Part shown: piece after piece, positions 1 through 17,952 of the stretch | Layout: each line of letters opens with the position of its first letter | Position numbering within the stretch: the stretch's first letter is position 1 | NCBI GenBank assembly: GCA_015233405.1 | Contig: JADFXT010000003.1 | Coordinates: 54,591-118,590, forward strand | Length of the DNA: 64,000 bases | DNA from: Candidatus Omnitrophota bacterium | GTDB lineage: Bacteria > Omnitrophota > Gorgyraeia > Zapsychrales > Zapsychraceae | Reading direction: 5' to 3' | Notes under the pieces: generated by a model | What the model saw: the letters and a program-made list of their open reading frames with translations, nothing else | What the model was told of the DNA's origin: nothing | The model's database searches: none | Program-made: the position numbers and the translations under genes

Positions 1-2
1 TT

Positions 3-1577
3 TTACTTAACTTGTCTACCGAATCCCACGCGAACACTATTTTGATTTTGTTGCGTATTATACATCCCCTGTGTTGCCACAGGTTGTGTATTCTGTGCCA
101 TGGGTCCGTCGATAATCTGATGGCAATTGGAACAAACACCGCGGTATCCATGTGTCATGCCAGCATTGCTTGAAATCGGCGGTGCCTGTACGGGCATTTG
201 AGCAGCGACAGGCGCCATGGGATTATTTCCTTGATTATAAAAATTCGGCTGATTATTTTGATTTTGGTAATACGCACCACCGCGCGCCATGATCTGTCCG
301 CAATTAGGACAACGCGGAAATTCATTTGCCCCTTGTTGCGCGTACATTCTCCAATTGCAATTCGGGCAGAGGAAGAATCCCGTCGATTCCGGACCATTCC
401 AAAAATTAGGTTGGTTCGTCATTTGGTTCATCTGCGGTCTAACCTGGTTCATATTGGCAGCCTGTTGCCCGCCTTCTGACCACCAATTGATTGGTCCTTT
501 GTTCGACATATCTTTAGCCATAGGCGAGCCACAGTTCGGGCACGTCGGATAATTATTGCCTTGCATTGTTCCTTTCATTCGCCAATTGCAATTCGGGCAA
601 ACAAAAACTTGCTGTCCCCATCCAAAAGCAACTTGAGTGCCAGTATTCATTTGTCCCATGGTATCCGGGTCCGGCATAGCCACACCTTGCACCATAGCGC
701 CTTGCATATATCCCGGCATTGGGCAAGCTTGACCCATTTGATTCATTCCCATTCCACCTTGCATAAAGCCCTGTCGAGTAGGTAAAGGACACGTCGGAAC
801 TGCCATCGTATTCATGTCCGGCATACCAAATCCAGCGCCCTGCGCGGTTTGCTGCATCATACGAATACGGCAATTGGGACAAACAGGACAAACACCTGCG
901 GAATTCTGACCGGCCATAATATACTTACAACGAGGACAAAAATAATTGCAAAAAACCCCGCCTTGTCCGGGGCCAAAACCTGCCTGCATATTAGCTTGTG
1001 CATTGACAGGAGAAACCGGTCCGGCCATAACAGGTTGAGAAATCACATTCGTGGACGTCGGGGCTTGAGGCATCCGTGCTTGCCGATAAAGACTGATGGC
1101 CTTTCTTGAAGTTCCTGCATATCCGCCAAACACACGTATGCCAAACTGCATCAGGATATTATAACTTTGCTGGTCGATATTGTTGACGATGACAGCCTCT
1201 TCTCCTTTGCCAGCAACTAAATACGCGATCTGGGGATTGGGCACCGTGCCACGATAAGGATTTTGAACCGCCTGAACAAGTTTCTGCGATAACGGATTCA
1301 CGACCAGAAAATATTTGGACTCTTGCAAAGACGGCGACACTTTAGCGCTCAAAGACGGGCCATCGGCCGCGATAACGATTTTTCCACAGGCCGGATTTCC
1401 CGCATTCTGGTTCTGAGTCTCAGGAGCAAACAGCGCGTAAACTCCAACGATCAAGACAAGAAATATCGAACCAAAAATAAAATAAACATTCAGGTCGACA
1501 TCTTTGAGCCGCGCCAGGAGATCCTCAAACGGATTATCTTGGGCTTTAGTGTTTTTTGCTTTCAAATTTTTTTCCAT
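3..1577 (-). CDS. membrane-anchored NifX/NifB-C-like domain protein with zinc-ribbon array, M/Q/N/G/P-rich low-complexity region and C-terminal magnetochrome-type CXXCH
   Basis: 524-codon ORF, TAA at 3-5. N-terminal TM helix (VYFIFGSIFLVLIVGVYALF). Residues ~65-165 resemble the dinitrogenase FeMo-cofactor-binding (NifX/NifB-C) fold (KIVIAADG..YFLVVNP..AVIVNNIDQQSYNILMQFGIRVF). Three CPxC..CPxC ribbons (FCPRCKYIM..CPVCPNCRIRM; VCPNCNWRM..CPNCGSPM; LCPNCNWRM..CPNCGQIM). C-terminal HGYRGVCSNCHQI. Confidence 0.8.
   Translation of the reverse strand: MEKNLKAKNTKAQDNPFEDLLARLKDVDLNVYFIFGSIFLVLIVGVYALFAPETQNQNAGNPACGKIVIAADGPSLSAKVSPSLQESKYFLVVNPLSQKLVQAVQNPYRGTVPNPQIAYLVAGKGEEAVIVNNIDQQSYNILMQFGIRVFGGYAGTSRKAISLYRQARMPQAPTSTNVISQPVMAGPVSPVNAQANMQAGFGPGQGGVFCNYFCPRCKYIMAGQNSAGVCPVCPNCRIRMMQQTAQGAGFGMPDMNTMAVPTCPLPTRQGFMQGGMGMNQMGQACPMPGYMQGAMVQGVAMPDPDTMGQMNTGTQVAFGWGQQVFVCPNCNWRMKGTMQGNNYPTCPNCGSPMAKDMSNKGPINWWSEGGQQAANMNQVRPQMNQMTNQPNFWNGPESTGFFLCPNCNWRMYAQQGANEFPRCPNCGQIMARGGAYYQNQNNQPNFYNQGNNPMAPVAAQMPVQAPPISSNAGMTHGYRGVCSNCHQIIDGPMAQNTQPVATQGMYNTQQNQNSVRVGFGRQVK
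111..152 (-). other. magnetochrome-type heme-c binding motif (H-G-Y-R-G-V-C-S-N-C-H-Q-I-I)
   Basis: CXXCH preceded by H-x-Y-R-G, the same pattern as the two motifs in the 13838-14680 product. It matches the magnetochrome signature known from MamP/MamE/MamT. Confidence 0.7.
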
Positions 1578-1607
1578 ATTATCCCCATTTGTTGATTCTT
1601 AAGTTTT

Positions 1608-2213
1608 TTAGAATCCTTGATTTGGATTATTGCCTTTATAAATCGGACCATATTGAAACGCTGGCCCAAAAACCGGTGAACCCATTTGCCACGTTCCTTT
1701 ATTCGGACCCATCAAAGGGCCGTATTGATATTCAAAGGGAATCGTTAAATACATCTTTTGTCCATCCCTATAAATGTCGAGGAGAATCCCATCAGTATAT
1801 TTAACATTGTTCGCTATATTAACAAAAGCTTTCGCCGTAGGAACCGGTTTACGCCCTATAGAAACAATGACATCGCCCGTCTTAACACCATATTTAAGAG
1901 CAAGATCTTTCCCTTCATCTAAAACAAACATACCCTTGATCTTCCCGGGGATATTAAATTCTTTACGGATACTGCGCGTCAATTGAATGACCCTCATGCC
2001 GATCCAGGTCATGCTATCGCCGGGTTCAACAATCGCACCATTCGCCGCCACGCGTTCTGCAGGCTCTGGAAAAATCTCGAGCGAAGAAACAAGCCAGCAA
2101 ATCACAATAATAGAGAAGATGACAATTCCGGCAGAAAGTACAGGCTCTTTGCGAACGAATGCTATGGTTCGTTTTTTTATTTCTTCAAACTTTTTTTCAT
2201 TTTTTGTTTTCAT
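1608..2213 (-). CDS. TM-anchored single-PDZ-domain protein
   Basis: N-terminal TM (VLSAGIVIFSIIVICWLV) followed by a PDZ-like segment (WIGMRVIQLTRSIRKEFNIPGKIKGMFVLDEGKDLALKYGVKTGDVIVSIGRKPV). Sits between the protease gene and the CXXCH protein gene. Confidence 0.75.
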   Translation of the reverse strand: MKTKNEKKFEEIKKRTIAFVRKEPVLSAGIVIFSIIVICWLVSSLEIFPEPAERVAANGAIVEPGDSMTWIGMRVIQLTRSIRKEFNIPGKIKGMFVLDEGKDLALKYGVKTGDVIVSIGRKPVPTAKAFVNIANNVKYTDGILLDIYRDGQKMYLTIPFEYQYGPLMGPNKGTWQMGSPVFGPAFQYGPIYKGNNPNQGF

Positions 2214-2217
2214 AGGC

Positions 2218-3639
2218 TCACTGTAGTTTCACTAAAATTTCATCGGTTTTTCCGTTTCTTAAAATATGGACATTCACGCTGTCCCCTGAGCGAAAATGCG
2301 CAACGACTTTTCTGATATCATCAGCCGATTGAATGACCACACCGGCAATAGCCGTGACAATGTCCCCTCTTTGAATCCCGGCAAACCTCGCCGGAGATTC
2401 ATCCATCACACGATTGACCAAAACACCTTGGCCAACAGATATCCCAAATTGTTTAGCAATAACATCATTAATAGGCATGACCTCTAATCCAAAACGTATC
2501 GGAACCGGCGCATCTGTTGTCGTTTTAGGTAAAGCCGCGGCCAACAAACCTTTTTGGTTAACTGGTACAGAAAAATTTCGTTTAAGCGCCTGAGCAAGAA
2601 AATCCTTGCAGTCATTGATAGGAATAGCAAATCCCGTTCCGCTAAAAACTCCGGTTGGCGCATAGATAGCCGTATTAATCGCGATGACTTCTCCGTTTAA
2701 ATTGACCAACGGCCCGCCGGAGGAACCACGGTTAATGGGCGCATCGGTTTGAAAAAGATTTTCATAGCGAATGCCTTCGATCAAAACAGATTTTCGAATG
2801 CCGCTTAAAATCCCGCTTGTTACCGTTTGTTCTATGCCAAACGGACTTCCGACAGCGACGACATAATCGCCGATCTGGCTAAAGCTCGAATCCGCCAAAG
2901 CCACCTCTGGAAATGGGCCATCCGCTCGTAATTTAAGAACAGCTAAATCCAAATTAGGTTCCTGGGCCACAAGATCCGCTTTAATATCACGCGACGGATT
3001 GCCAAAAACGGTCACGACGATATCGGTCGCATCTTTGGTCACGTGGTAATTTGTTAAAACATATCCGCGCTCATCCACGAAAATTCCGGCGCCGACATTT
3101 TCATATCCTTTGTTTTCGATAAATTTATCAATGGTCCCGTCGAACGGCGGGGCAAATTGAAGGTTCTGGGCGTCAATGGTCGGACGAACAGGCGTGCGAA
3201 CAACCCGTCGGGCGTGGATATCGCAGACCGAAGGGATAATAACATTGACCGCATCTTTTAATGAATTCTGGAATTTGCTGTCCGTGTTCGCGACAAGCTG
3301 CATACCGCCGTTAGGTGTGGCCTTGGTAATAGCTGCGACGGAATAATTAGAGGTGTTCCGCTGATTCGCCACGAGCTGCATACCACCGTTTGGTGTGGCC
3401 TTGGTAATAGCGGCTGGTGTGGCCATTCCTGCCTGAACGACCGGACTAGGGAACTTCGGCTCGCCGACATTAGATGGATTAACCGGATTCTTAGCACCGC
3501 CATTCTCAGCCTCAATGCTATTCGTGATATCTTCCCGTCTCATCACGACCCAAAAAAGGAGCATGACCGAGATAATGACTACACCGACTATCCATGGGCC
3601 CAGCGGCTTACGACAAAATAGATCGTTTGAATCTTCCAT
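2218..3639 (-). CDS. TM-anchored trypsin-like serine protease with C-terminal PDZ (HtrA/DegP family; MamE-like, lacking CXXCH)
   Basis: Catalytic triad contexts are intact: TNYHVTKDA (His), DLAVLKL (Asp), GSSGGPLVN (Ser). One PDZ (GVLVNRVMDESPARFAGIQRGDIVTAIAG). N-terminal TM (WIVGVVIISVMLLFWVV). Confidence 0.9.
   Translation of the reverse strand: MEDSNDLFCRKPLGPWIVGVVIISVMLLFWVVMRREDITNSIEAENGGAKNPVNPSNVGEPKFPSPVVQAGMATPAAITKATPNGGMQLVANQRNTSNYSVAAITKATPNGGMQLVANTDSKFQNSLKDAVNVIIPSVCDIHARRVVRTPVRPTIDAQNLQFAPPFDGTIDKFIENKGYENVGAGIFVDERGYVLTNYHVTKDATDIVVTVFGNPSRDIKADLVAQEPNLDLAVLKLRADGPFPEVALADSSFSQIGDYVVAVGSPFGIEQTVTSGILSGIRKSVLIEGIRYENLFQTDAPINRGSSGGPLVNLNGEVIAINTAIYAPTGVFSGTGFAIPINDCKDFLAQALKRNFSVPVNQKGLLAAALPKTTTDAPVPIRFGLEVMPINDVIAKQFGISVGQGVLVNRVMDESPARFAGIQRGDIVTAIAGVVIQSADDIRKVVAHFRSGDSVNVHILRNGKTDEILVKLQ
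3286..3414 (-). repeat. in-frame 78-nt tandem duplication inside the protease gene (AAITKATPNGGMQLVAN x2)
   Basis: DNA segments starting near 3290 and 3368 are nearly identical (gctgcataccRccgttWggtgtggccttggtaatagc). The protein repeat has a 26-aa period. Confidence 0.85.
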
Positions 3640-3661
3640 TCTTTTCCCTCACCTCTATTAG

Positions 3662-3886
3662 TTAAAAAGCAAACTTATCCCCAGCTACAGGAGTATCCAC
3701 TCCGGTGCTTGGAAAAGCAGCCGGCATTGCAGCTTTGTTTACCGTGGTTGGAACATGGTGCAATTGATGGTGCCGGGTCTTTCCCTTAAATCTAAAGAAG
3801 ACGGCAGCAGAGATCAATGTACAGACACCTAGAATAATTAAAAAACCAAACCACGGATTAAGACACTTTTCTTTATTTCCAATCAT
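3662..3886 (-). CDS. small single-TM membrane protein, unknown function
   Basis: 74-aa ORF with a TM helix (WFGFLIILGVCTLISAAVFF) and a His-rich stretch (TRHHQLHH). GAGG lies upstream of the ATG. Tightly packed between the MamI-like and protease genes. Confidence 0.5.
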   Translation of the reverse strand: MIGNKEKCLNPWFGFLIILGVCTLISAAVFFRFKGKTRHHQLHHVPTTVNKAAMPAAFPSTGVDTPVAGDKFAF

Positions 3887-3905
3887 AACGACGCCTCACG
3901 AATAA

Positions 3906-4076
3906 TTATTTTTTACCTTTTGTGAGTTTAAGCCCTGTGTTAAGAGCGATCAGCCCGCCGATAAGAAGCGCAAGCGGAACAGATCCACGTAAAAAATCGC
4001 CGAAATTATCCCACCAACCGAAAATCCCGACAACTCCTAAAAGAGCTGCAATTGCTCCTCCAATAACATGTGCCAT
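3906..4076 (-). CDS. MamI-like small two-TM membrane protein (56 aa; below ORF-track cutoff)
   Basis: Hand translation: MAHVIGGAIAALLGVVGIFGWWDNFGDFLRGSVPLALLIGGLIALNTGLKLTKGKK. AAGGAGA lies 6 nt upstream of the ATG at 4076. The G..G...WW....FLRG.VP...L..GGL.AL pattern recalls MamI. Position immediately upstream of the protease mirrors the mamI-mamE order. Confidence 0.55.
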   Translation of the reverse strand: MAHVIGGAIAALLGVVGIFGWWDNFGDFLRGSVPLALLIGGLIALNTGLKLTKGKK

Positions 4077-4102
4077 TTGTTTCTCCTTTCATTACTGTTT
4101 AA

Positions 4103-4387
4103 CTAACCGTTTATAAATGTTACCCCGAATCCTCCTCGAGGATTTTCCCAAACAATTGCGCCATCTGTACAAACCACCCGGCAGCTTCCGCACTCAAGAC
4201 AATTTTCATATGAGGCTTCAATGGCGCCGCTTTTCTCTTCGTAGGTCTTCGCCGGACAAACAACAAGACACATCTTGTGCTCGCAGTGCTTACAAACTTT
4301 CTTGTTGATCTTGATATGGCTCGCTGCATCTTTCTTGGTCTTGACCAAAAAAAGCTTGTCATCTAAAGAAAGTTTTCCGGTTTTCAT
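4103..4387 (-). CDS. fixX: ferredoxin-like protein FixX
   Basis: 94 aa. CPAKTYEE...YENCLECGSCRVVC...WENPRGGFGVTF aligns closely with E. coli FixX/YdiT. ATGA overlap with fixC. Confidence 0.85.
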   Translation of the reverse strand: MKTGKLSLDDKLFLVKTKKDAASHIKINKKVCKHCEHKMCLVVCPAKTYEEKSGAIEASYENCLECGSCRVVCTDGAIVWENPRGGFGVTFING

Positions 4388-5697
4388 ATTAAATTACTCC
4401 ACGCGCCCCACATATCGGACGCGACACGGGTCAATTTCACGTTTTTCATGACACGATTAAAAATCTCTTTTTTAACAACGCTTTTGGGCTTTTCGGACAC
4501 ACGGAAATAATCCACCAGAATATCATTCATCAAAGTCGGATAATCGTTGATAAGGGATTTATGTTTATGCAAGAACGACAGAAAATTTTTGCAATTTTTT
4601 AAATCCTGCATGACGAAACTCGCCTTAAGTTTTTCTTCATATTGCGACAGCGCCTCAGCGGTAAAATCGTTCTTCTCCTTCGCCTCGATAATCGTTTCCG
4701 CAGCAGAAAGGCCGGAGGACATCGCCAAATTGACACCTTCATGGAAAAACGACGTATTTAAAAGTCCTGCTGCATCGCCGACGACCAATAGCCCATCCCG
4801 GTAAAGCTTAGGAAGATAATCAAACCCGTCAGACGGGATCATATGCGCCATATATTCGGTGGTTTCTCCTCCGCGCACTAAAGGGGCGATGACCGGATGG
4901 CTCTTAAAATCATCGAGAATATCATTCGGATTCTTTGCATTCTCACTTTTCATAAAATCGCTTAAAGAAAATCCAACGCCAACGGATAAACTGTCTTGGT
5001 TCGTATAAATAAATCCATTTCCCAAAAGCCCTTGGACGGAGGCACCAAAATATTCATAGGCCGCGCCTTGACGGTCCGTTAAGCCGAACCGGTCTTCAAT
5101 AACGCTTCGAGGCAGACGGATGTTTTCCTTGACCGCGATGGAACGACGGCCTGGACTAATTTTCTTACGAAGCCTTGCCTTTTCCGATAACAATGAATTC
5201 GCGCCTTCTGCACAGACAATCACATCAGCCAATAAGCTATCTTCATCTCCACCGCTTGTAATACCGACGACTTTTCCGTTTTCATAAAGAAAATCTCGTA
5301 CGCAGTAATTCGTGATAATGCTCGCGCCAGCCTCTTCTGCCTTCTTGGCCAACCATTGGTCCATCGAGCCACGCCGTGCCAGAAAGGAATGATTATACGG
5401 TGCAACGTTAAATGCCGCAGGCGTTAAATCAAACGCCATTTCGTTTTCATTCGCTAAAAGAGCAAATTTTCTTTTCCCGACGTAACGTTCCCACGGCGCG
5501 TTATCTAAGAAATCTGGGAAAAGTTTTTCCATGATGCTTGAGAAAAATATCCCTCCAAACACATTCTTCGCGCCAGGATATTCGCCGCGCTCAATAACGA
5601 CGACCTCTATCCCGCGTTTAGCCAGAGCATACGCACACGTCAATCCCGAAGGCCCTGCGCCGACAATAATAACTTCCATTTTATCAGTTTGATTCAT
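4384..5697 (-). CDS. fixC: FAD-dependent electron-transfer-flavoprotein:quinone oxidoreductase FixC
   Basis: 437 aa. VIIVGAGPSGL dinucleotide fold. Long colinear similarity to E. coli FixC (GAKNV.GG; LPRSVIEDRF.L...QGAA; GGGF/NGFIYTN; FK.HP..APL; VGDAAG). Confidence 0.9.
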   Translation of the reverse strand: MNQTDKMEVIIVGAGPSGLTCAYALAKRGIEVVVIERGEYPGAKNVFGGIFFSSIMEKLFPDFLDNAPWERYVGKRKFALLANENEMAFDLTPAAFNVAPYNHSFLARRGSMDQWLAKKAEEAGASIITNYCVRDFLYENGKVVGITSGGDEDSLLADVIVCAEGANSLLSEKARLRKKISPGRRSIAVKENIRLPRSVIEDRFGLTDRQGAAYEYFGASVQGLLGNGFIYTNQDSLSVGVGFSLSDFMKSENAKNPNDILDDFKSHPVIAPLVRGGETTEYMAHMIPSDGFDYLPKLYRDGLLVVGDAAGLLNTSFFHEGVNLAMSSGLSAAETIIEAKEKNDFTAEALSQYEEKLKASFVMQDLKNCKNFLSFLHKHKSLINDYPTLMNDILVDYFRVSEKPKSVVKKEIFNRVMKNVKLTRVASDMWGAWSNLI

Positions 5698-6115
5698 GAG
5701 AAAAATTCTCTAACTTGCCCGTTTGTTTGTTTATTTGTTTGTTTGGGAAAAACTTATCTCTGATGAGCGCCGCATACTTTCCGGAAACATATAAACCTTT
5801 TTTCAACGTCTCTGCAATATTCGTTCGACTGCGCCGCAAAATATGAGCGCGGGATTTTGTCGCCGTTTTTAAATGAATAGCCTCATGAACTGGCTCTTTA
5901 TCGTGAAGATTTGCTTCAGTATGATTATTTGATTTTATTTTCTTGAGGAGGTCTAGAACAGCTTCTCGGGGGATACGCTGATGCCCGCCTAATGTAGTGA
6001 CCGCTTTAAGCTTTCCTTGCTTGACCCAACTTAAGACGGTAAAACGGGTAACATGAAGAAGCTCTGCAGCTTGCGACGTTGTTAAAAAATTATGTGAGGA
6101 GGTTGGAGTGTGCAT
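5684..6115 (-). CDS. excisionase/MerR-superfamily helix-turn-helix DNA-binding protein
   Basis: N-terminal LTTSQAAELLHVTRFTVLSWVKQGKLKAVTTLGGHQRIPREAV (HTH_17-like). Paralogous to the N-terminus of the 17494-17952 product. First gene after a sigma70-like promoter. Confidence 0.8.
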   Translation of the reverse strand: MHTPTSSHNFLTTSQAAELLHVTRFTVLSWVKQGKLKAVTTLGGHQRIPREAVLDLLKKIKSNNHTEANLHDKEPVHEAIHLKTATKSRAHILRRSRTNIAETLKKGLYVSGKYAALIRDKFFPNKQINKQTGKLENFSHESN

Positions 6116-12042: not shown

Positions 12043-12948
12043 TTACGCTGGCTCAAAAAAGAAATCAACTTCACCGATGGACGGAAGATTACGAATAACC
12101 GACTTCTTCATATCGTCCATGGCCACACAGACTTCCTGAAGAGTACCCGTCTTGGGACAGCGAAGACTGATGCCGACCCAAAATTTCTTGCCCACTCTCT
12201 TAAACTTGATACTCCCTGGTCGATATTTAGGATAAGCGGACAGGATCATCTTTTCTATGCGAAGCGCGAACCCCGGTTCAGGAACCTGGTCCAGGATGTT
12301 TCGCACATTAGAAGCCCAATGACTCAAAGAATCTTTAACAATGACCACACCGACGATGAGAGCTGCTAACCGGTCGCAGACGGCAAAATCAGCCCCCATC
12401 TGAGATAAAATGATCCCTAAAATCACGGCACTTGAAGAAAGGACATCTGCTCCGGCGTGACAACCGTTTGCAATCAGTCCAGAGCTATCTAACCTTTTGC
12501 CGGCGCAAAAATTATACCGTTGGATCATATAGGTCAGAAAGACCGACGCTACGGCAACGGGGAGCGCCAACACAATATCCGGTTGGACAAAATCACGTCT
12601 AAGAATGGCCAGAATGCTCGAAAGCGTAATAGAAACGCCAAACCCGATCAAGATACTAAACGCGATAAGCGCGACGATAAATTCAAGTTTCGCATAACCA
12701 TACGGAAATCGAACATCATTCGGCCGACTGGAAAATGACAAGCTCACCATAATGAGAATGCTCGTCACAACACAAGCGATGGATTGAATTCCGTCGGCGA
12801 TCATCCCGGAACTGTTGGCGAACGTTCCACCGGCAAGTTTTATTACGACCAAAACAGCATTGCCGATGACTGTCCAGACGAGGATTTTCTTTGAACACGC
12901 CCAACAGCCTTCTGTCGTCATACAGGAATTTGCATTTTTTGAAATCAT
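12043..12948 (-). CDS. cation diffusion facilitator transporter, MamB-like (N-terminal CxxC)
   Basis: 301 aa with CDF topology. N-terminal CWAC parallels the CxxC of MamB. TM2 ADGIQSIACV. TM5 NGCHAGADV (HxxxD retained). PYGYAKLEF loop. C-terminal cytoplasmic domain. Confidence 0.8.
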   Translation of the reverse strand: MISKNANSCMTTEGCWACSKKILVWTVIGNAVLVVIKLAGGTFANSSGMIADGIQSIACVVTSILIMVSLSFSSRPNDVRFPYGYAKLEFIVALIAFSILIGFGVSITLSSILAILRRDFVQPDIVLALPVAVASVFLTYMIQRYNFCAGKRLDSSGLIANGCHAGADVLSSSAVILGIILSQMGADFAVCDRLAALIVGVVIVKDSLSHWASNVRNILDQVPEPGFALRIEKMILSAYPKYRPGSIKFKRVGKKFWVGISLRCPKTGTLQEVCVAMDDMKKSVIRNLPSIGEVDFFFEPA

Positions 12949-13835
12949 ATTTTTTCTTCCAGCCTAATACCAATGAACACTTCATGGGGGCTTAAAAATT
13001 TTACCTTTACCGCTCTTTTGATGTTCTCTGCGATAGCAAAAACGTCCACCATGGGAATGTCTTTTGCCGTCGACAGATCAGCGATAATTTCGTAGATGTG
13101 GCCGATCTTGTTAACGCGTAACGCCTTTAACGACGCTTCACCTATCTGTGCTTTACGGATACAACTTTCGACCTCGGAAACAGTTTTCTTATCGCACGAG
13201 GCATCCATCAGCCCTATAAAGGCTTTATATAAAAATAAAACACTGTAGGCGATGATAAAGAACGCCGCAAAAATAGCGCATCCATAATCAACAATGTAAG
13301 ACCCCATCCTCGATATTACGACGGTAAGGATGGTCAAGACCGAAAGCAGGAAATCTGTATCCAGAATAAAGATAATATCCTTCGATTCGTCTTCTTCCTG
13401 AATATTGGTTATCTCGGCCTTGATTCTTACCATAAACACTAAACTGATCGTAGCAGCGATCGCCGCAACCCACGCAGCCAGAAATTCTGGCGGATAAAGC
13501 GTGTGAAAGAAAATCATATGGCCTAAAGAAAAAAGAAGGGCGCTGGTGCTTAAGGCGATAACTGACGATATCGCCAAAAGGATCATGAATTCAAGCTTGC
13601 CCCGGTTAAAATATGGCGATAGCCGTCGGGAAGAATGCGTTATACCGATGCGCATCAAGGTGGCAATGGCTATCAAGATACCAAAAATCGCGAAGATGCC
13701 GGATACCAATAAACATTTTGAGCCCGTGATGACGCCTAAAACAGTCTTAAACAAAAAAGATGTTATAAAAAAATATAATAAGGCATAGGTGATCCGCTCT
13801 TTCTTTTCTTTAAGGAAATCTGGTTTCTTTTTCAT
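12945..13835 (-). CDS. cation diffusion facilitator paralogue with degenerate transport-site residues (MamM-like partner?)
   Basis: CDF-like layout (NRGKLEFMILLA loop, C-terminal domain). TM2 reads LVSGIFAIFG, lacking the D/H pair. The ATG at 13835 is preferred over the track GTG at 13859 because it lies 2 nt after the upstream stop. ATGA-type 4-nt overlap with the downstream CDF gene. Confidence 0.75.
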   Translation of the reverse strand: MKKKPDFLKEKKERITYALLYFFITSFLFKTVLGVITGSKCLLVSGIFAIFGILIAIATLMRIGITHSSRRLSPYFNRGKLEFMILLAISSVIALSTSALLFSLGHMIFFHTLYPPEFLAAWVAAIAATISLVFMVRIKAEITNIQEEDESKDIIFILDTDFLLSVLTILTVVISRMGSYIVDYGCAIFAAFFIIAYSVLFLYKAFIGLMDASCDKKTVSEVESCIRKAQIGEASLKALRVNKIGHIYEIIADLSTAKDIPMVDVFAIAENIKRAVKVKFLSPHEVFIGIRLEEKI

Positions 13836-13837
13836 CG

Positions 13838-14680
13838 TTATCCCTGGATTACATGGCACTTAGAACAAATCCCTCGATATTCATGCGGCGCCTGCGCATT
13901 TGCCGGTATCGCTGGGACATTAGGGGTCATAATCACATGACAATTTTCACAGACGCCGCGAAATTCATGCATCATAATTGCATCACGCAAAATGGCCGGC
14001 GCCTTTGTTTGTCCCGGGATTGGCTTCGTTAAAGCAACCGTCCGCGCTCCAGGGAATACACATCCATTTCTGCCCGTATACGCAATCTGCTGGCCAGCAC
14101 CGCCCGTCGTGGCAGGAGGAAAACATTGGGTAACCGTCGGACATGTCATACAACCCGGCGGAATATACGCCGCTTGTTGACCGGCCTGCGCCTGCCACTG
14201 ATTAAAAATTTGCGTTCCCGTTGGACAATTGGGTTGAAAGGCTATTTGTTGTCCACCACCCGTTGCCGGAGGAAAACATTGGGCAACATTGGGACACACC
14301 GCACAATTCGGTGGAACATACGCAGCCTGTTGTGCAGCGCCTGTTCCTTGAGGAAAACATTGTGTGACCGTTGGGCACGTCATACAACCCGGCGGAATAT
14401 ACGCCACTTGCTGCGGCATGGACTGCCACTGATTAAAGTCTTGAGCAGCGGTTGGATAATTCTGCTGAAACGCGACCTGCTGAGAGCCTCCCGTGGCAAT
14501 AATCCCTTGCTGGGCAGGATCTTGAACGGGCACCGGTTTGGGCCGCATATTAAAAAGCGCAAAGCAGAAAAATGACGTGAGCCCGACGACAGTAAGCCCT
14601 ATCATCCATAAACTTTTGGCATTGATATTCGCGCAGGAATCGTCTGCGAAAAATATCTCTTCTTTTTTATCGTTCTTCAT
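13838..14680 (-). CDS. TM-anchored double-magnetochrome (2x CXXCH) protein with Q-rich CxxC..C repeat region
   Basis: 280 aa. N-terminal TM (LWMIGLTVVGLTSFFCFALF). Repeats of PPGCMTCPTVTQCFP type. C-terminal MHEFRGVCENCHVI and PHEYRGICSKCHVI. Confidence 0.85.
   Translation of the reverse strand: MKNDKKEEIFFADDSCANINAKSLWMIGLTVVGLTSFFCFALFNMRPKPVPVQDPAQQGIIATGGSQQVAFQQNYPTAAQDFNQWQSMPQQVAYIPPGCMTCPTVTQCFPQGTGAAQQAAYVPPNCAVCPNVAQCFPPATGGGQQIAFQPNCPTGTQIFNQWQAQAGQQAAYIPPGCMTCPTVTQCFPPATTGGAGQQIAYTGRNGCVFPGARTVALTKPIPGQTKAPAILRDAIMMHEFRGVCENCHVIMTPNVPAIPANAQAPHEYRGICSKCHVIQG
13841..13972 (-). other. two tandem magnetochrome-type heme-c motifs
   Basis: H-E-F-R-G-V-C-E-N-C-H and P-H-E-Y-R-G-I-C-S-K-C-H, about 28 residues apart. 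Confidence 0.75.
14078..14482 (-). repeat. in-frame ~234-nt (78-aa) super-repeat inside the double-CXXCH gene
   Basis: QQVAFQQNYPTAAQDFNQWQ..QQVAYIPPGCMTCPTVTQCFP versus QQIAFQPNCPTGTQIFNQWQ..QQAAYIPPGCMTCPTVTQCFP. DNA blocks near 14117-14180 and 14351-14414 are nearly identical. Confidence 0.8.
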
Positions 14681-14774
14681 GAAAAACCCCTTTCATTTTA
14701 ATCCCTCCGTCCCCCTTATACTGATGGGGGAGGTTATATATTGTCACAATCCAAGGAACACAATTGTTTTGCCT

Positions 14775-14897
14775 GTCATCCTCAACTTCCTCGATGTTGT
14801 ATCTAGAAATGATTGGGGATCCATTAAATGCTTTTAGGTCCTAAGCCCCTACAGGAGGACACCTTCTGGATCCCCGCCTAAAGATTGCGGGGATGAC
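14775..14897. repeat. palindromic MITE/REP-like element, subfamily A (123 bp, left arm degenerate)
   Basis: Starts gtcatcctc, contains the core ggggatccattaaatgcttttaggtcc, and ends ggatccccgcctaaagattgcggggatgac. The right arm is nearly identical to that of 36178-36283. Confidence 0.8.
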
Positions 14898-14989
14898 AGA
14901 AAAAGATCAAGGATAAGACCTATAATTTTCATCATTTCCACAAAAACGGGAATCCACTCTTTAAAAAATAAAAATCATATAACCAGACA

Positions 14990-15436
14990 CTATATTCCGC
15001 CGGGACGGGTTCCTACCGTCGTATAAATAATGACCGATTCTCCTTGCCGGTCGATCGTAATTTTAACACGCTCATTTGTATTGGATGTCTGGATAAGCCG
15101 CTCCAGTTGTTCCGGGCTGGTTACACTGGTCCCGTTCCACCTTCGGATGACATCCCCTTCATGAATTTTGGACGCTTGCGCCGGCGAGCCGACAAAAACT
15201 CTCGAAACCAATAAGCCGTTCGATGACTGAATATCAAATTGCTTTTTGATATCCGTCGTAAGCTCAACCGTTTCCATGCCCAGCCAAAGCCGCGAATCCG
15301 CAGGCTTGAGCAGCATGGTCGGCAACTTTATAAAAAGCACAATCACCGTAATGGCCGTTAAAAGGATCATAAAAAGGACCGCGTTGACCGCGTCATCATT
15401 TTTTCTCTTAATGGCCACCTTTGTTTTTATCATCAT
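14990..15436 (-). CDS. TM-anchored single-PDZ-domain protein
   Basis: 148 aa. N-terminal TM (AVLFMILLTAITVIVLFI) followed by PDZ (LWLGMETVELTTDIKKQFDIQSSNGLLVSRVFVGSPAQASKIHEGDVIRRWNG). 4-nt overlap with the NapH-like gene. Confidence 0.8.
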   Translation of the reverse strand: MMIKTKVAIKRKNDDAVNAVLFMILLTAITVIVLFIKLPTMLLKPADSRLWLGMETVELTTDIKKQFDIQSSNGLLVSRVFVGSPAQASKIHEGDVIRRWNGTSVTSPEQLERLIQTSNTNERVKITIDRQGESVIIYTTVGTRPGGI

Positions 15437-16281
15437 TGCCCCTGATTATTCGTTGTCGCTGTTGCCCCAAGGCCAACCTTGACATTTTCACATTTCAAAC
15501 ACTTAAAACATCTCACACACGTCGACGCGCCAGGGTCATCACTAATGTTGATATCCACCGGACAGACCTCTCTACATTTTTGGCAATCTTTGCAATCGCG
15601 CGGGTCCACTTTTAGTTGAAGAATGCTGTGTCTATTAAAGAATCCAAATATCGCACCGAGCGGGCAGGCTAGACGGCAAAATGGCCTTTTGGCGATAATG
15701 AAAAGCGCGATAAAAGAAAATGCGATAAGGATCTTGATGATAAATAATAACCCTAAAGTCGAAAGAGACACAGCCGGCTCGCCGTAGACCGGAATGATCG
15801 GATTCCAAACGACCCAAGGAATCGCGGCTTGAAGCGTCCCCATAGGGCACACCTTCGAGAACCAAGTCTCTTGCGTGATTAACGGGAACAAAATAACGAG
15901 AAAAATCAGGATCAGATATCGTAAGGCTGATAACTTTTGTGGAAGACGGATCTTTACACTCTTTATTTTATAAAAAAGATCCTGGATAAGCCCAAACGGG
16001 CACAACCAACCGCATGCCAAAGAACCCACCATAATTCCGGTGGTCGCAAGATATGCCGTCAAAAGATACGGGAACTTACGGATGGTCATAAAATGTTGAA
16101 ATGTTCCAATAGGGCAGGAAAGAAATGCCGACGGACAACTATGGCAATTCAACCCCGGGATGCACACACTTTTTAGCGAGCCCTGATAAACCTGTTTGGT
16201 CCTTAAAAAACCGAAATACGCATTTGTTAAGACGAGCGAACACCACTGTGCTGTCGTGCGTATACTCTGTAGCAAATCCAT
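15433..16281 (-). CDS. NapH/MauN/NosH-like integral-membrane polyferredoxin (putative quinol-linked electron transfer)
   Basis: 282 aa. CX3CP motifs (CGWLCP, CRLACP) plus CHSCPSAFLSCP between TM helices. C-terminal 2x[4Fe-4S]-type CKDCQKCREVCP and CVRCFKCLKC. Confidence 0.8.
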   Translation of the reverse strand: MDLLQSIRTTAQWCSLVLTNAYFGFLRTKQVYQGSLKSVCIPGLNCHSCPSAFLSCPIGTFQHFMTIRKFPYLLTAYLATTGIMVGSLACGWLCPFGLIQDLFYKIKSVKIRLPQKLSALRYLILIFLVILFPLITQETWFSKVCPMGTLQAAIPWVVWNPIIPVYGEPAVSLSTLGLLFIIKILIAFSFIALFIIAKRPFCRLACPLGAIFGFFNRHSILQLKVDPRDCKDCQKCREVCPVDINISDDPGASTCVRCFKCLKCENVKVGLGATATTNNQGQ

Positions 16282-16284
16282 CCG

Positions 16285-16419
16285 TTACTCCAATCCAATA
16301 CAGGCCATGCACATGGTGGCCCCGTTGTTTTGTGTCTCGAGAGGTTCGTTGTTATTGTCTCCGATAAGGAAAAAAATAAACGCCAAAAAGAAGACGACAA
16401 TCACGACTATCTTTTTCAT
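16285..16419 (-). CDS. possible 44-aa exported/membrane peptide with C-terminal CMAC (below ORF-track cutoff)
   Basis: Hand translation: MKKIVVIVVFFLAFIFFLIGDNNNEPLETQNNGATMCMACIGLE. The stop lies 4 nt before the NapH-like ATG. No homology claim is made. Confidence 0.3.
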   Translation of the reverse strand: MKKIVVIVVFFLAFIFFLIGDNNNEPLETQNNGATMCMACIGLE

Positions 16420-16439
16420 AATCAAACATCCTTCCAGAT

Positions 16440-16790
16440 TTACTGGCTTTCAATCCATGTCATATATGTTCGACACCGCGGGCATTGTGGAAATCCGCTA
16501 TATCCGCAGGCCGGACAAACAAAGGCGCCCCGATATCCGTTCCAATACATGGAAACCTGGCACGTCGGGCATAAAGGAACTCCTTTTGCACCGCACTTGG
16601 GACAAACACTGAACACATTATGTTCAATCACCTTCATGACGACATTATTGGAAACAAGGGAACGCGCCTGGACTGTTTTAAATTTCGAAACCGAATACAT
16701 GGCATACCCGGACAAAAAAATGGCAAAAGCCACCACCATGATAAGTAGGCGATTTCTGTCCTGATCATTTAAGATAATACTGTCTTCCAT
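16440..16790 (-). CDS. TM-anchored double zinc-ribbon protein
   Basis: 116 aa. TM (LLIMVVAFAIFLSGYAMY) followed by CPKCGAKGVPLCPTCQVSMYW and CPACGYSGFPQCPRCRTYMTW. The ribbon style matches that of the 3-1577 product. Confidence 0.65.
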   Translation of the reverse strand: MEDSIILNDQDRNRLLIMVVAFAIFLSGYAMYSVSKFKTVQARSLVSNNVVMKVIEHNVFSVCPKCGAKGVPLCPTCQVSMYWNGYRGAFVCPACGYSGFPQCPRCRTYMTWIESQ

Positions 16791-16792
16791 GC

Positions 16793-17497
16793 TTACAACA
16801 CCTTCACTTTGGGTTTTACAGCGGCACTATTAAGCGGCGCAGTCACGGCGGTTACCTCATGCATAACGCCACCACACTTAGGGCATTGCGTGGGAACAAT
16901 AGCTCCGGCACTTTTTTCCGAAACGCGGTAACTGCAATCAAAGCACATATAATATTTTCCCTGGACTATCCGCCCGACGTTGGCTTGGGCATCAAAGGAG
17001 TTACAGGCCACCGGCGTTTTACTTCCGGTAATGCCGAAATGCGACGGAACGTTTTGTTCGGTAAGTTTGGTCAGGCCGTCGGGAAAATCATTGAGCGCCT
17101 GCCACACGGTCCCTTTTAAATCCGTATAAACTTCAATACGCGCCTGGCTAAAAACTCTAAAAGGTTCAAATCCAACATTGTTGCCGAGAACAGCGTCGAC
17201 GTTTAAACCCGCGATCATTTGAGCGGAACGTAACCCAGCGGCATGCTGGGCGTCCATAAATTTATTCGGTACGGCCTTATACGTTCTTTTGGCACGGTCA
17301 CAGATAATATAAAACGGCGCCCTGCCGAACAGGTAGGAAACCGGGCTTGAAATGTCTTTCCCCGTCGATGCGATCGCGATGATCACGGCCTTTTTACCGG
17401 TCAAAACCAATGGATTATTCTTTTCATAAAGCGCGCGCCCAATGACAAGGCCGACCGCCACAATCAAAACGATGAGGAATATCGTTTCTTTTTTCAT
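16793..17497 (-). CDS. membrane-anchored NifX/NifB-C-like domain protein with C-terminal zinc ribbon
   Basis: 234 aa. N-terminal TM. Good NifX-family pattern (AVIIAIASTGKDISSPVSYLFGRAPFYIICD...GLNVDAVLGNNVGFEPFRVFSQARIEVY). C-terminal CFDCSYRV...CPKCGGVM. Confidence 0.8.
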   Translation of the reverse strand: MKKETIFLIVLIVAVGLVIGRALYEKNNPLVLTGKKAVIIAIASTGKDISSPVSYLFGRAPFYIICDRAKRTYKAVPNKFMDAQHAAGLRSAQMIAGLNVDAVLGNNVGFEPFRVFSQARIEVYTDLKGTVWQALNDFPDGLTKLTEQNVPSHFGITGSKTPVACNSFDAQANVGRIVQGKYYMCFDCSYRVSEKSAGAIVPTQCPKCGGVMHEVTAVTAPLNSAAVKPKVKVL

Positions 17498-17952
17498 TGG
17501 GGATTACTCTTCTGCTTCGTTTTATTTTTCGTAGAAACAGCTTCGCCATCCTGGTCAAAATGGATTTTCTTGTAATACTCGCAGGATAAACAAGAAGTCT
17601 TACAGAAGATCTTTTGGTGGGCGACGTGTTCACGGATCGTGTAACACTTTTTGGTATCGGACAGAAAGACGACACAGAGTTTGCAGTTATGAACTCCATT
17701 ATTCTTCACCGGTTGATGAAATTCCCAACAGCGTAAAAAATCTGCATTTTCTATAAACTTCTCCGACTTAATTGCGTTGAGGCCGATTTTATACGTTTTA
17801 ATAAAAGCAACGAGGTCCGCACGGTGAATGCGCCGGTGGCCGCCCGGGGTCTTGGTGCTTTTTAAAATCCCTTTTTTCGTCCAATTGATGATAGAGAATC
17901 TTGTTACGTTGCAAAGCTTGGAAATCTCTACGGTTGAATAATATTCCTTCAT
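17494..17952 (-). CDS. excisionase/MerR-superfamily HTH DNA-binding protein with Cys-rich C-terminal module
   Basis: YSTVEISKLCNVTRFSIINWTKKGILKSTKTPGGHRRIHRADLV (HTH_17-like) followed by CWEF..CKLC..C..CKTSCLSCEYY. AGGAGG RBS. 4-nt overlap with the downstream NifX-like gene. Confidence 0.8.
   Translation of the reverse strand: MKEYYSTVEISKLCNVTRFSIINWTKKGILKSTKTPGGHRRIHRADLVAFIKTYKIGLNAIKSEKFIENADFLRCWEFHQPVKNNGVHNCKLCVVFLSDTKKCYTIREHVAHQKIFCKTSCLSCEYYKKIHFDQDGEAVSTKNKTKQKSNPQ

Follow-up and report, generated by a model that had tools for sequence, protein, structure and literature searches.

Gene content and organization

ORF and domain analysis of a window of Omnitrophota DNA (the whole 64-kb stretch that was analysed) identified 23 co-directional genes between positions 3 and 17952, all on the minus strand. 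This total, which agrees with the "about 23" of a first-pass annotation of the sequence, counts a conserved 46-aa ORF at 16285-16425. None of the 23 ORFs is disrupted, and they follow one another closely, overlapping by 1-22 nt or leaving short gaps. The right-hand border of the cluster at 17952 is real, with pstBACS, mla, glycosyl-transferase, GAPDH and other genes beyond it. Promoter and terminator scans returned site counts at chance level, a limit that also applies to a promoter-like site at 18100-18072, before the HTH_17 gene at 17494-17952, and to the best promoter-like site on the minus strand, 6179-6151, at the HTH_17 gene at 5684-6115. Judged by sequence comparison, the genes fall into two blocks conserved in Omnitrophota: module A, from 17952 to 10955, and module B, from 10887 to 3, which runs on beyond the left edge. 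The genes of module A are as follows.

17494-17952 (-): HTH_17 (excisionase/MerR-like) regulator with Cys-rich C-terminus, gene 1 of module A (HTH_17 E=1.6e-9)
16793-17497 (-): TM-anchored NifX-like (Nitro_FeMo-Co) protein with one C-terminal Cys4 ribbon (PF02579 E=1.9e-14)
16440-16790 (-): TM protein with two Cys4 ribbons (Zn-ribbon matches)
16285-16425 (-): 46-aa TM peptide ending CMAC (conserved ORF)
15433-16281 (-): NapH-like membrane ferredoxin, Mad6-type (Fer4_5 E=5.7e-16; NapH/MauN TIGR02163 E=2e-15)
14990-15436 (-): TM + PDZ protein (PDZ_2 E=4e-9; MamP profile E=9e-8 over the PDZ part)
13838-14680 (-): TM protein with three CxxCPxVxQC repeats and two magnetochrome domains (MCR PF18509 48 bits, over GA 30.4)
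12945-13859 (-): divergent CDF in the MamM position (best NCBIfam matches MamB 70 bits, MamM 66 bits)
12043-12948 (-): MamB-type CDF with N-terminal CWAC (NF033616 MamB 139.5 bits, best specific match)
10955-11890 (-): PAS + two-CW-domain sensor, end of module A (PAS E=7e-8)

Module A resembles a second iron-handling triad

The HTH_17 regulator that opens module A is 74-81% identical to the gene in the same position in two related loci, L002 and L030. Both loci also encode the NifX-like protein (71-72% identity), whose ribbon gave a weak rubrerythrin-like (rubredoxin-type) match, the two-ribbon protein (60-64%) and the NapH-like protein (69-75%). ORFs 60-74% identical to the 46-aa peptide occupy the same position in L002, L003 and L030, and a 43-44-aa gene was called there in four independent assemblies. 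The sensor at the other end of the module, which matched the two_CW_domain profile NF045718 at 43.1 bits (cut-off 35), is 54-62% identical and in the same position in L002, L004 and L030.

In every module-A locus, the TM + PDZ gene at 14990-15436 immediately precedes the magnetochrome gene, and we read its product as the PDZ part of a MamP-like unit that is split in two. MCR is present in 40/40 homologues of the di-magnetochrome protein, all named ones being from Omnitrophica or Planctomycetes MAGs, and the 3-Cys repeat in 31/40. The two CDF genes overlap by 4 nt, as the first-pass annotation had noticed, and the product of the second begins ...EGCWACSK, with a CxxC common to canonical Omnitrophota MamB and MamM; its best tblastn match in L001 is mamB. 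The first CDF is without the N-terminal CxxC and without the acidic and His residues of the transport site (alignment A2), and its tblastn match in L001 is mamM. These features make module A resemble a divergent duplicate of the mamP-mamM-mamB triad for iron handling, in which the PDZ gene, the di-magnetochrome gene, the degenerate CDF and the CxxC-bearing CDF would be the copied part. These genes are joined to those for the NapH-like and NifX-like/ribbon proteins, the HTH regulator and the PAS/two-CW sensor.

Module B combines accessory genes with a magnetosome core

8944-10887 (-): CHASE2 sensor + PP2C (SpoIIE-type) phosphatase, start of module B (CHASE2 E=1e-55; SpoIIE E=7e-46)
8481-8882 (-): RsbW-type anti-sigma serine kinase (HATPase_c_2 E=2.7e-27)
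8130-8468 (-): STAS anti-anti-sigma-type protein (STAS E=7.6e-22)
7348-8130 (-): K+ channel with TPR/SNAP-like N-domain and 2-TM pore (Ion_trans_2 E=1.9e-12; THIGYGD filter)
6294-7313 (-): membrane-anchored ApbE, FAD:protein FMN transferase family (ApbE E=3.5e-67)
5684-6115 (-): HTH_17 regulator heading the fixCX-mamI sub-operon (HTH_17 E=8e-12)
4384-5697 (-): FixC-type ETF-quinone-oxidoreductase-like flavoprotein (FixC NF007542 327 bits)
4103-4387 (-): FixX-type ferredoxin (FixX NF011993 E=1e-12)
3906-4076 (-): MamI, 56 aa, two TM (NF040963 E=2.3e-12)
3662-3886 (-): 74-aa single-TM protein between mamI and mamE (conserved position)
2218-3639 (-): MamE-type HtrA protease with one TM, a trypsin domain and one PDZ, without magnetochrome (profiles)
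1608-2213 (-): TM + PDZ protein, FmpA/MamE-Cter-type (PDZ; MamP profile)
3-1577 (-): TM + NifX-like protein with three Cys4 ribbons and one magnetochrome, FmpB-type composition (MCR, Nitro_FeMo-Co)

The CHASE2-PP2C protein is 52-65% identical to proteins encoded upstream of mamI in L001, L007, L018, L022 and L026, and the synteny of the RsbW-type gene is conserved in related loci. In the STAS protein, the Ser in ...FVCSAGL aligns with Ser58 of SpoIIAA. The K+ channel is 49-64% identical in the same five loci and in L029. ApbE is 63-71% identical and in the same position in L007, L018, L022, L026 and the ERZ1426828 contig; a search for the canonical flavinylation motif that would mark its substrate found none. 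The second HTH_17 regulator matched MamR weakly (21.5 bits). Downstream of it, fixX overlaps fixC by 4 nt, and the order HTH-fixC-fixX-mamI is repeated in at least four further loci that have been sequenced (L010, L011, L028 and L029), where FixC is 66-79% identical and directly upstream of mamI and FixX is 63-77% identical. Ten further FixC homologues lie on contigs equal in size to MamP-bearing contigs.

The 56-aa protein, which had been likened to MamI, carries the pattern GIFGWWDNFGDFLRGSVP, and its sole NCBIfam match is MamI NF040963, at 46.6 bits and under the equivalog cut-off of 80. Its orthologues (59-85% identical) carry precomputed PF26391:MamI, and the MamI alignment A1 has 28 invariant columns. 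Of 16 loci with MamI homologues in JGI metagenomes, every one that has enough flank shows neighbours typical of a magnetosome gene cluster (MGC), mamE included. The protease had been placed directly downstream of mamI; its HtrA-type triad motifs and PDZ domain are present, but the 74-aa TM gene intervenes. This small protein, 33-51% identical and in the same position in most related loci, had no family match in Pfam and NCBIfam profile searches. The protease matched Trypsin_2 (E=2.5e-29), PDZ_2 (E=2e-13) and MamE NF040960 (238.7 bits), contains TNYHV, DLAVLK and GSSGGP, which we read as the HtrA-type triad, and is 53-77% identical in relatives. The PDZ protein at 1608-2213, one of two predicted TM + PDZ proteins that were both recovered (the other at 14990-15436), has MamP as its best NCBIfam match over the PDZ part (E=6e-11) and is 47-64% identical in relatives.

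The leftmost protein (524 aa; 39-57% identical in relatives) scored 31.7 bits for MCR, over GA, and 26.1 bits for Nitro_FeMo-Co, against a GA of 26.3. Profile A3 of its family matched, in the PDB, MamP (4jj0) and the NifX/NifB-like MTH1175, TM1290, PH0822 and TM1816, with E values from 4e-8 to 3e-4. Its only TM is N-terminal and its haem-c motif C-terminal. Cytochrome c maturation places such a motif outside the cytoplasm, so the NifX-like domain and ribbons have to be extracytoplasmic or lumenal as well. Three motifs of the form H-x-[YF]-R-G-x-C-x-x-C-H had been reported in the first pass, and all were found on the minus strand (13937-13969, 13853-13885 and 120-152). Six-frame translation gave exactly these three occurrences in 64 kb, all inside the cluster, and Pfam MCR PF18509 is over its gathering threshold in both magnetochrome proteins (3-1577 and 13838-14680).

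Synteny and source of the cluster

Evidence in support of the original reading of the region as an MGC came from profile searches (Pfam, NCBIfam), which recovered MamI, MamE-type, MamB/M-type and MCR matches, and from synteny with relatives. Module B is conserved in L001, L007/8, L018, L022, L026 and the ERZ1426828 contig, followed by mamP-M-B-A-Q-N-tauE-feoB. Module A is conserved in L002, L003, L004 and L030, and directly follows tauE-PLDc_N-PDZ in L002 and L030. In the closed genome of one relative, L011, the magnetochromes and the NifX domain have been lost. As had been claimed, mamK, mamQ and mamA are missing from the window: tblastn with relatives' proteins found no actin-like, MamA or MamQ homologue there. 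The suggestion that the cluster continues leftwards also held. The window proteins are 100% identical to GenBank MBF0521969-85 ("Candidatus Omnitrophica bacterium" MAG) from one 186,091-bp contig, with one accession number per gene. The same contig encodes a canonical MamP (P0051, MBF0521966.1; 2xPDZ + magnetochrome) three accession numbers, and three genes, before MBF0521969.1, the window's leftmost gene, and the corresponding string of genes in relatives continues with mamM-mamB-mamA-mamQ-mamN-tauE. Region 3-17952 is thus very likely the promoter-proximal part of an MGC, made up of two phylum-conserved blocks, from an uncultured and presumably magnetotactic member of the Omnitrophota.

We take the accession series of the source MAG (HQL24) to be that of Lin et al. 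2020. On this basis and that of sister MAGs, the MAG very probably belongs to the series of that study, whose genomes came from magnetically enriched cells, were chosen for MGC content and had their MGCs checked by hand (PMC7602337). The novelty implied by the first-pass annotation was overstated: the sequence is in GenBank, descriptions of Omnitrophica MGCs go back to 2018 (PMC5955933), and the cluster is not new because its genome is very probably part of the 2020 survey of magnetically collected bacteria. The gene content had also been called largely non-canonical. While it is not the standard mam set, it is not unprecedented, since nearly every accessory gene keeps its position in other Omnitrophota MGCs and counterparts exist in Desulfovibrio magneticus RS-1. 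The "non-canonical" genes are conserved MGC parts typical of the lineage and fall into two modules. A discussion of the conserved accessory redox and regulatory modules of this known cluster was not found in the searchable literature.

Alternative explanations

With its CDF pair and its NapH-like, NifX-like and magnetochrome proteins, module A might be an envelope iron/redox system in its own right, often located close to MGCs without being a magnetosome module. Its place in the gene order varies: it precedes module B in the window and comes after tauE in L002 and L030. The module also brings an HTH regulator and a PAS sensor of its own. In the ERZ1426828 sample, it lies on a separate contig beside RND efflux, YceI, AIRS and HGD-D genes. 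However, this sole sample with module A apart also contains the main MGC, and the module-A magnetochrome protein shares a contig with MamP in 8 MAGs (contigs equated by size). Moreover, the named MAGs behind its 40 MCR-bearing homologues are of the magnetotactic series, the CDFs match MamB and MamM best, and in RS-1 the NapH-like Mad6 is linked to a magnetosome phenotype. We consider an independent system improbable.

It is very unlikely that the cluster is silent or decaying, inherited and unused for magnetosomes as in Rhodovastum atsumiense. Silent MGCs do exist (PMC9938234), a feoB elsewhere in the window has an in-frame TAA, and L011 has lost the components named above. Against this stand the intactness and tight packing of 23/23 ORFs, the retention of haem motifs, HtrA-type active-site motifs, K+ filter and STAS serine, and orthologues that retain length and order at 40-85% identity; the apparent parent data set (Lin et al. 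2020) also consists of magnetically collected cells. A generic metal-homeostasis or stress island with a chance resemblance to mam genes, to which the widespread HtrA, CDF, PDZ, NapH, FixCX and ApbE families and the failure of any match to reach a Mam NCBIfam equivalog cut-off might point, is effectively refuted by the canonical MamP on the same contig and by collinearity with clusters containing MamA, MamQ, MamN and TauE, and is further opposed by MamI being the only family match of the 56-aa protein and by magnetochrome domains over Pfam gathering thresholds.

Proposed roles and parallels in RS-1

If the region is part of a working MGC, the biogenesis core of module B would comprise MamI, the MamE-type protease, the PDZ protein at 1608-2213 and the membrane-anchored NifX-like/Cys4-ribbon/magnetochrome protein. 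MamI may initiate the vesicle, the protease may sort and process proteins, and the PDZ protein may serve as an adaptor. The CDF pairs would load Fe2+ into the vesicle, where lumenal magnetochromes could set the Fe2+/Fe3+ ratio, with electrons passing to and from the quinone pool by way of the NapH-like protein and, at the cytoplasmic face, of FixCX. Ahead of the core lie the HTH regulator, FixCX, ApbE, the K+ channel and the CHASE2-PP2C/RsbW/STAS partner-switching set. The K+ channel may balance charge, and the HTH, PAS and partner-switching proteins may make expression or activity respond to redox and external signals. Links are missing in the electron path and in the regulatory output, since no FixAB/ETF genes and no sigma factor were found in the cluster region.

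Deep-branching magnetotactic bacteria have counterparts of several accessory genes (PMC4287615). In Desulfovibrio magneticus RS-1, Mad6, which is mostly a NapH domain, resembles the cluster's NapH-like protein, FmpB (magnetochrome + NifX/NifB) its NifX + magnetochrome protein, and FmpA (PDZ only) its PDZ-only protein, while Kup is a precedent for K+ transport alongside the K+ channel (PMC4287615). A magnetosome phenotype is on record for each of mad6, fmpB, fmpA, kup and mamB C9Y in RS-1 (PMC4287615).

Core magnetosome genes

The 23 genes at window positions 3-17952, every one on the minus strand, form a genuine Omnitrophota magnetosome gene cluster (MGC), as the first-pass annotation correctly recognised: the region is linked to mamP and is collinear with clusters that carry mamA, mamQ and mamN. 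Neighbouring genes overlap by 1-22 nt or are separated by short gaps, the largest being 309, 178 and 152 nt. Comparing all window proteins by tblastn with 30 loci from relatives (L001-L030) resolves the cluster into two blocks.

Module A, 17952 to 10955, minus strand: HTH_17 regulator; TM-anchored NifX-like protein with one Cys4 ribbon; TM protein with two ribbons; 46-aa peptide; NapH-like ferredoxin; TM-PDZ protein; di-magnetochrome protein; two CDF proteins; PAS/two-CW protein
Module B, 10887 to 3, minus strand: CHASE2-PP2C protein; RsbW-type kinase; STAS protein; K+ channel; ApbE; HTH_17 regulator; FixC; FixX; MamI; 74-aa protein; MamE; PDZ protein; NifX-ribbon-magnetochrome protein

The core MGC set comprises mamA, B, M, K, P, Q, E, O and I (PMC7449369). 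The 56-aa protein at 3906-4076, earlier likened to MamI, has two hydrophobic segments, and its sole NCBIfam match is the MamI model (NF040963, E=2.3e-12). The score falls under the equivalog cut-off, which we assume reflects a model built mainly from much closer MamI sequences; orthologues in relatives are annotated PF26391. The first-pass annotation had proposed that the MGC reading would be refuted if the 56-aa and CXXCH proteins had equally close homologues in many genomes without other mam genes and no further magnetosome genes turned up. In every case with sufficient flanking sequence, the 16 MamI homologues found in JGI metagenomes have mamE and the other cluster genes as neighbours, so this objection fails. 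The membrane-anchored protease at 2218-3639 was likewise read correctly as carrying a catalytic triad and a PDZ domain: it has one TM segment, a trypsin domain (Trypsin_2) with the HtrA-type active-site motifs TNYHV, DLAVLK and GSSGGP, and a score of 238.7 bits on the MamE profile. It had also been placed directly downstream of mamI, which is not strictly so, since a conserved 74-aa gene lies between the two.

The two CDF genes do overlap by 4 nt, and the second product begins ...EGCWACSK, with the CWAC seen on first reading. The pair is diverged, scoring 139/130 bits (second CDF) and 70/66 bits (first CDF) on the MamB/MamM profiles; a canonical mamB/mamM pair was seen in relatives only. A six-frame translation of the 64 kb contains exactly the three H-x-[YF]-R-G-x-C-x-x-C-H motifs reported before, all within the cluster, and both carrier proteins match the magnetochrome domain (MCR, PF18509) at 48.0 and 31.7 bits, above the gathering threshold (GA) of 30.4. 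The remaining features of the first-pass list, including two TM+PDZ proteins, are also present. Within the window itself, mamP occurs only as split PDZ and MCR genes. A canonical mamP encodes MBF0521966.1, a protein of 396 aa with PDZ_1/PDZ_2/PDZ_6 and MCR domains. NCBI lists two further MamP-like proteins (P0100 and P0125, 41-56% identical) under "Patescibacteria group bacterium" and "candidate division KSB1"; these labels may reflect mis-binning or further MGC-bearing lineages.

The absence of mamK, mamQ and mamA from the window was borne out by tblastn of relatives' proteins against the 64 kb. The MamA-like and MamQ proteins of L030, which with L029 represents the MGC of nHLH_bin2 (GCA_015232535.1, contig JADFZM010000001.1), gave zero matches; mamA and mamQ were found downstream in every relative with enough sequence. 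For actin-like mamK/mad28, the two Volactin/MreB-type proteins of L029 had no window match, and none was found among the scanned window ORFs. The nHLH_bin2 MGC has, upstream of its K+ channel, two adjacent actin-like genes (L029, 398-2588; Pfam Volactin/MreB-type, 344 and 392 aa), likely the mamK/mad28 pair. The window holds no counterpart.

Source, borders and continuation of the cluster

Five window proteins are 100% identical to GenBank entries: MBF0521985 (magnetochrome protein), -973 (MamI), -971 (protease), -969 (the 524-aa product of gene 3-1577) and -983 (CDF). All five share one 186,091-bp contig of a metagenome-assembled genome (MAG) labelled "Candidatus Omnitrophica bacterium" (locus tag HQL24). 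Homologues of cluster proteins also occur in other Omnitrophica MAGs of the same series, and a scan of genome contigs returned UBA10174, a 51%-identical relative. Lin et al. worked from magnetically enriched cells and retained a sequenced genome only if its MGC had been checked by hand (2020, PMC7602337); they had reported Omnitrophica MGCs "distinct from known MGCs" in 2018 (PMC5955933), and an Omnitrophica-specific gene set was remarked on in 2020. The window is most probably one genome of this 2018/2020 set. We infer membership in the 2020 data set strongly from the other MAGs of the series rather than from a direct match. The cluster itself is thus very probably already known, as Omnitrophota MGCs are published and this sequence would be part of that data set.

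The right border of the cluster is real. A 167-nt gap is followed by pstBACS, mla, sugar-metabolism genes, GAPDH, a Cus-like RND system and cysteine synthesis. No tRNA, Rfam RNA gene or GC shift was found that would mark an island border, and the promoter and terminator scan returned counts no higher than in shuffled sequence.

On the left, the cluster was suspected to run beyond the window, and it does: mamP lies on the same contig past the window's left end. This flank was deduced from accession order and synteny. Querying with the MamP of L001 (two PDZ domains plus MCR; 213 bits on NF040965) retrieved the 69%-identical, 396-aa MBF0521966.1 on the 186,091-bp contig. Accession numbers step one per gene through the window, from 969 for gene 3-1577 through 971 (protease), 973 (MamI) and 983 (CDF) to 985 (magnetochrome protein), and number 966 therefore places mamP three genes left of the window. 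The spacing is the same in L001, L007, L010 and L029: between the NifX-magnetochrome gene and mamP come two small genes.

Beyond mamP, relatives continue in one of two ways. Some run straight into mamM-mamB-mamA-mamQ-PDZ/mamN-tauE-PLDc_N-PDZ-...-feoB. Others (L010, L028 and L029, the fixCX-bearing subclade nearest to the window) pass first through ccsA and haem-biosynthesis genes; in nHLH_bin2, mamM-B-A-Q-N-tauE comes about 7 kb after these genes. In L010 (16910-21314), L028 (15979-21094) and L029 (17457-21317), mamP is followed directly by a CcsA-type cytochrome c assembly gene and by hemA, hemC, hemD/cobA, ALAD and radical-SAM genes. This arrangement suggests a cluster-encoded haem supply for the magnetochromes.

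Module A, a putative diverged companion of the mam core

Module A genes are collinear and 36-81% identical in L002, L003, L004 and L030. The position of the module varies: it follows tauE-PLDc_N-PDZ in L002 and nHLH_bin2 and lies upstream of module B in the window. Its core has the order PDZ / magnetochromes / CDF / CDF, with the first CDF matching mamM and the second mamB in L001. Because of this order and these matches, the core looks like a diverged copy of mamP-mamM-mamB in which mamP has been split in two.

In the CDF alignment, four positions are presumed, on the model of YiiP and MamM, to form the transport site. The first CDF carries F/G/I/D there and the second Q/C/H/D, as against H/D/E/D and C/D/H/D in canonical Omnitrophota MamB and MamM. 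The first CDF also lacks the N-terminal CxxC; it is therefore probably a non-transporting partner, as judged from these residues. The di-magnetochrome family (13838-14680 and its homologues P0001-P0040) carries one to three copies of a CxTCP[TS][VF][TA][QN]C repeat upstream of the haem motifs in 31 of 40 homologues. No description of this three-cysteine repeat was found, and the repeat could be an extra metal-binding element.

The NapH-like protein has Fer4_5 and NapH/MauN matches and a conserved place in module A; judged on architecture and context alone, it would qualify as Mad6-type. The PAS protein (10955-11890) has a terminal two-CW domain scoring 43 bits (cut-off 35), and it and the module-A HTH regulator (17494-17952) may sense redox state or metal. 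The regulator has a Cys-rich tail beginning CWEF that resembles the two-CW end of the PAS protein. Between the module-A PDZ and magnetochrome genes lies the 309-nt non-coding gap (14681-14989), in which no conserved ORF was found; the same junction measures 18-27 nt in L002 and L030.

Module A could in principle serve a function independent of magnetosomes. Contigs carrying P0025, one of the di-magnetochrome homologues, raised the possibility of a stand-alone system in non-magnetotactic genomes, and in sample ERZ1426828 module A and the main MGC lie on different contigs. That proposal was weakened by the finding that the same sample holds the main MGC. In eight MAGs, contigs of equal size indicate that the module-A magnetochrome protein is encoded together with MamP. 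Given that module A co-occurs with MGCs, a function independent of magnetosomes is unlikely.

Accessory genes of module B

Module B begins with a partner-switching set, with SpoIIE, HATPase_c_2 and STAS domains in three consecutive genes. The set is conserved in six other loci and, with the K+ channel (selectivity filter THIGYGD), lies upstream of mamI in L001, L007/8, L018, L022, L026 and the ERZ1426828 contig. It resembles RsbU/RsbV/RsbW in combining a PP2C phosphatase with a CHASE2 sensor, an RsbW-type kinase and a STAS protein in one run. In contrast to that system, domain searches found no sigma-factor domain in the cluster region and no other obvious partner-switch output in the cluster, and it is unusual for such a set to head an organelle gene cluster.

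The assignment of ApbE (6294-7313) is clear-cut (E=3.5e-67). The gene recurs in L007/8, L018, L022, L026 and the ERZ1426828 contig; L001 differs from the window in having neither apbE nor fixCX. The flavinylation motif [DS]xx[ST]GA[TS] is absent from all cluster proteins and from ten related loci.

The FixC flavoprotein and FixX ferredoxin genes are adjacent, with a 4-nt overlap, as in FixABCX/ETF-quinone oxidoreductase systems. Unlike in those systems, the region has no FixA/FixB (ETF) genes, and fixCX sits directly upstream of mamI. No ETF domain was detected among the 23 cluster genes or within 10 kb in L010, L011, L028 and L029. As fixCX is missing from the first nine loci (L001-L009), a one-off insertion was considered. 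This was rejected, since a FixC search returned Omnitrophica proteins 61-84% identical on contigs equal in size to ten MamP-bearing contigs, and the order HTH-fixC-fixX-mamI was seen directly in four loci (L010, L011, L028 and L029).

The NifX-magnetochrome protein

The leftmost gene (3-1577) encodes a 524-aa protein with one N-terminal TM segment and three CxxC...CxxC ribbons between a NifX-like domain and a magnetochrome, and so has the FmpB-type composition of MCR and NifX-like domain in one cluster protein. Its family profile matches the NifX/NifB-like structures MTH1175, TM1290, PH0822 and TM1816 (E 4e-8 to 3e-4) and, over the magnetochrome, the MamP structure 4jj0 in the PDB. Haem c is attached outside the cytoplasm, and the whole ectodomain should therefore be lumenal or periplasmic. 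In sequence clustering the protein (P0044) was grouped with a 47-aa representative called "Flp pilus assembly pilin", which looks like an artefact of its low-complexity region.

The closed 1.82-Mb Omnitrophota genome GCA_020343695.1 (CP070807.1; L011, 9393-21320) has an MGC-like run of HTH-fixCX-mamI-mamE-PDZ-...-mamM-B-A-Q-N. Its FmpB-type protein lacks both the NifX-like domain and the magnetochrome, the protein in the MamP position has a single PDZ, and no CXXCH magnetochrome motif occurs in 21 kb of L011. Here a small closed genome carries a haem-free form of the cluster.

Comparison with known magnetosome systems

The closest counterparts are the published Omnitrophota MGCs. That of nHLH_bin2, one of the Omnitrophota bins of Lin et al., is an example: it mostly keeps the gene order of the window through HTH-fixCX-mamI-~74aa-mamE-PDZ-NifX/MCR-two small genes-mamP and whose module A genes are 38-81% identical. 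In nHLH_bin2, as in L002, module A lies downstream of tauE, whereas in the window it precedes module B. At the place occupied in the window by the partner-switching set and ApbE, nHLH_bin2 encodes Hpt, NMT1, a sensor kinase and the two actin-like genes.

Parallels also extend to Desulfovibrio magneticus RS-1. Rahn-Lee et al. (2015, PMC4287615) described FmpB as a magnetochrome plus NifX/NifB-domain protein, FmpA as PDZ-only and Mad6 as a NapH-domain protein, and reported magnetosome phenotypes for all three, for an island-encoded K+ transporter and for MamB Cys9. The transporter was needed for magnetite formation, and the N-terminal MamB cysteine was essential (C9Y). The window shares with RS-1 a protease-only MamE without magnetochromes, followed by a PDZ-only protein (as fmpA) and a magnetochrome+NifX/NifB protein (as fmpB), together with a NapH-domain protein, K+ transport and an N-terminal MamB cysteine; Mad6 (DMR_41050) and FmpA and FmpB (DMR_41090/41100) were likened to window proteins by description alone. 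The FmpB-type protein of the window has NifX first and the magnetochrome last, the reverse of RS-1, with three Cys4 ribbons inserted, and K+ transport involves a 2-TM channel rather than Kup. FixCX, ApbE and the partner-switching set are not reported from the RS-1 island.

With the Magnetospirillum mamAB cluster, the window shares the MamI, MamE, MamP, MamM and MamB families and the magnetochrome domain. Its MamE, however, is free of magnetochromes, separate module-A genes divide the MamP-like functions between them, and mamK, mamA and mamQ are absent. Conversely, the Magnetospirillum cluster lacks NapH-like, NifX-like, FixCX, ApbE, K+ channel and partner-switching genes.

A possible control and electron-supply layer

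The accessory genes are kept with the mam core across many independent assemblies, and this is where the value of the locus lies. They include regulators, the partner-switching set, the K+ channel, ApbE, FixCX, the NapH-like protein and membrane-anchored NifX-like/Cys4-ribbon proteins. In the searchable literature, the only mention found linking ApbE, FixC, NifX or anti-sigma proteins to magnetosomes is that of NifX/FmpB in RS-1. Of the whole cluster, only these conserved regulatory and redox genes, which were not found discussed there, have some novelty.

We tentatively propose, as a possible rather than a probable reading, that the accessory genes form a conserved, undiscussed control-and-electron-supply layer. 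The partner switch, K+ channel and HTH/PAS-two-CW proteins would gate the organelle by external or redox signals; FixCX on the cytoplasmic side, the NapH-like Mad6-type protein in the membrane, and ApbE would also belong to it, and lumenal NifX-like and rubredoxin-like ribbon proteins would connect the magnetochromes with the quinone pool. For the mechanism of the cluster as a whole, the observed framework consists of domain assignments, topology logic, synteny and linkage; each functional step is argued by analogy with Magnetospirillum and RS-1. MamI, MamE and the PDZ proteins would build and populate the vesicle, and iron would enter as Fe2+ through the CDF pairs. The magnetochromes, perhaps aided by the ribbon and NifX-like ectodomains, would tune the redox state of iron, a step that the NapH-like protein and FixCX may connect to quinones and cytoplasmic reductant. 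The K+ channel could provide charge compensation, and the HTH, PAS/two-CW and partner-switching proteins would decide when the system is on.

With such a layer, the cluster itself would encode an interface that ties magnetite or greigite formation to regulation and respiration. To our knowledge, no interface of that kind is known for model magnetospirilla. Magnetosome redox balance and expression control outside the Alphaproteobacteria are poorly understood, and the accessory genes, which parallel the few genetic hits from RS-1, are concrete testable candidates.

A silent cluster, with the same genes carried to no effect, is improbable; the ORFs and motifs are intact. Nor can the region be a generic metal island, since it is linked to mamP/A/Q/N. 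A ferrosome (fez) reading was dropped, as the region contains no P1B-ATPase or fez-like genes.

Other metal-related loci in the window

Two further loci lie to the right of the cluster.

44599-47723, minus strand: second iron locus, with Fur (47286-47723), a FeoB homologue (45302-47257) and a DtxR-type/FeoA fusion (44599-45363)
32849-39219 and 41592-44408: Cus-like RND efflux system, with an AcrB-type pump, an HlyD-family protein with a heavy-metal-binding domain and OEP, then DUF3034, an Rrf2 regulator and an ArsP permease

In nHLH_bin2, FeoB and a DtxR-type/FeoA fusion stand at the end of the MGC, and the window FeoB shares 44.5% identity with that MGC-linked FeoB. One in-frame TAA (45794-45796) splits the window gene and may mark a pseudogene or an assembly error. 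RND/OEP and DUF3034 genes adjoin module A in L002, L004 and the P0025 contigs as well.
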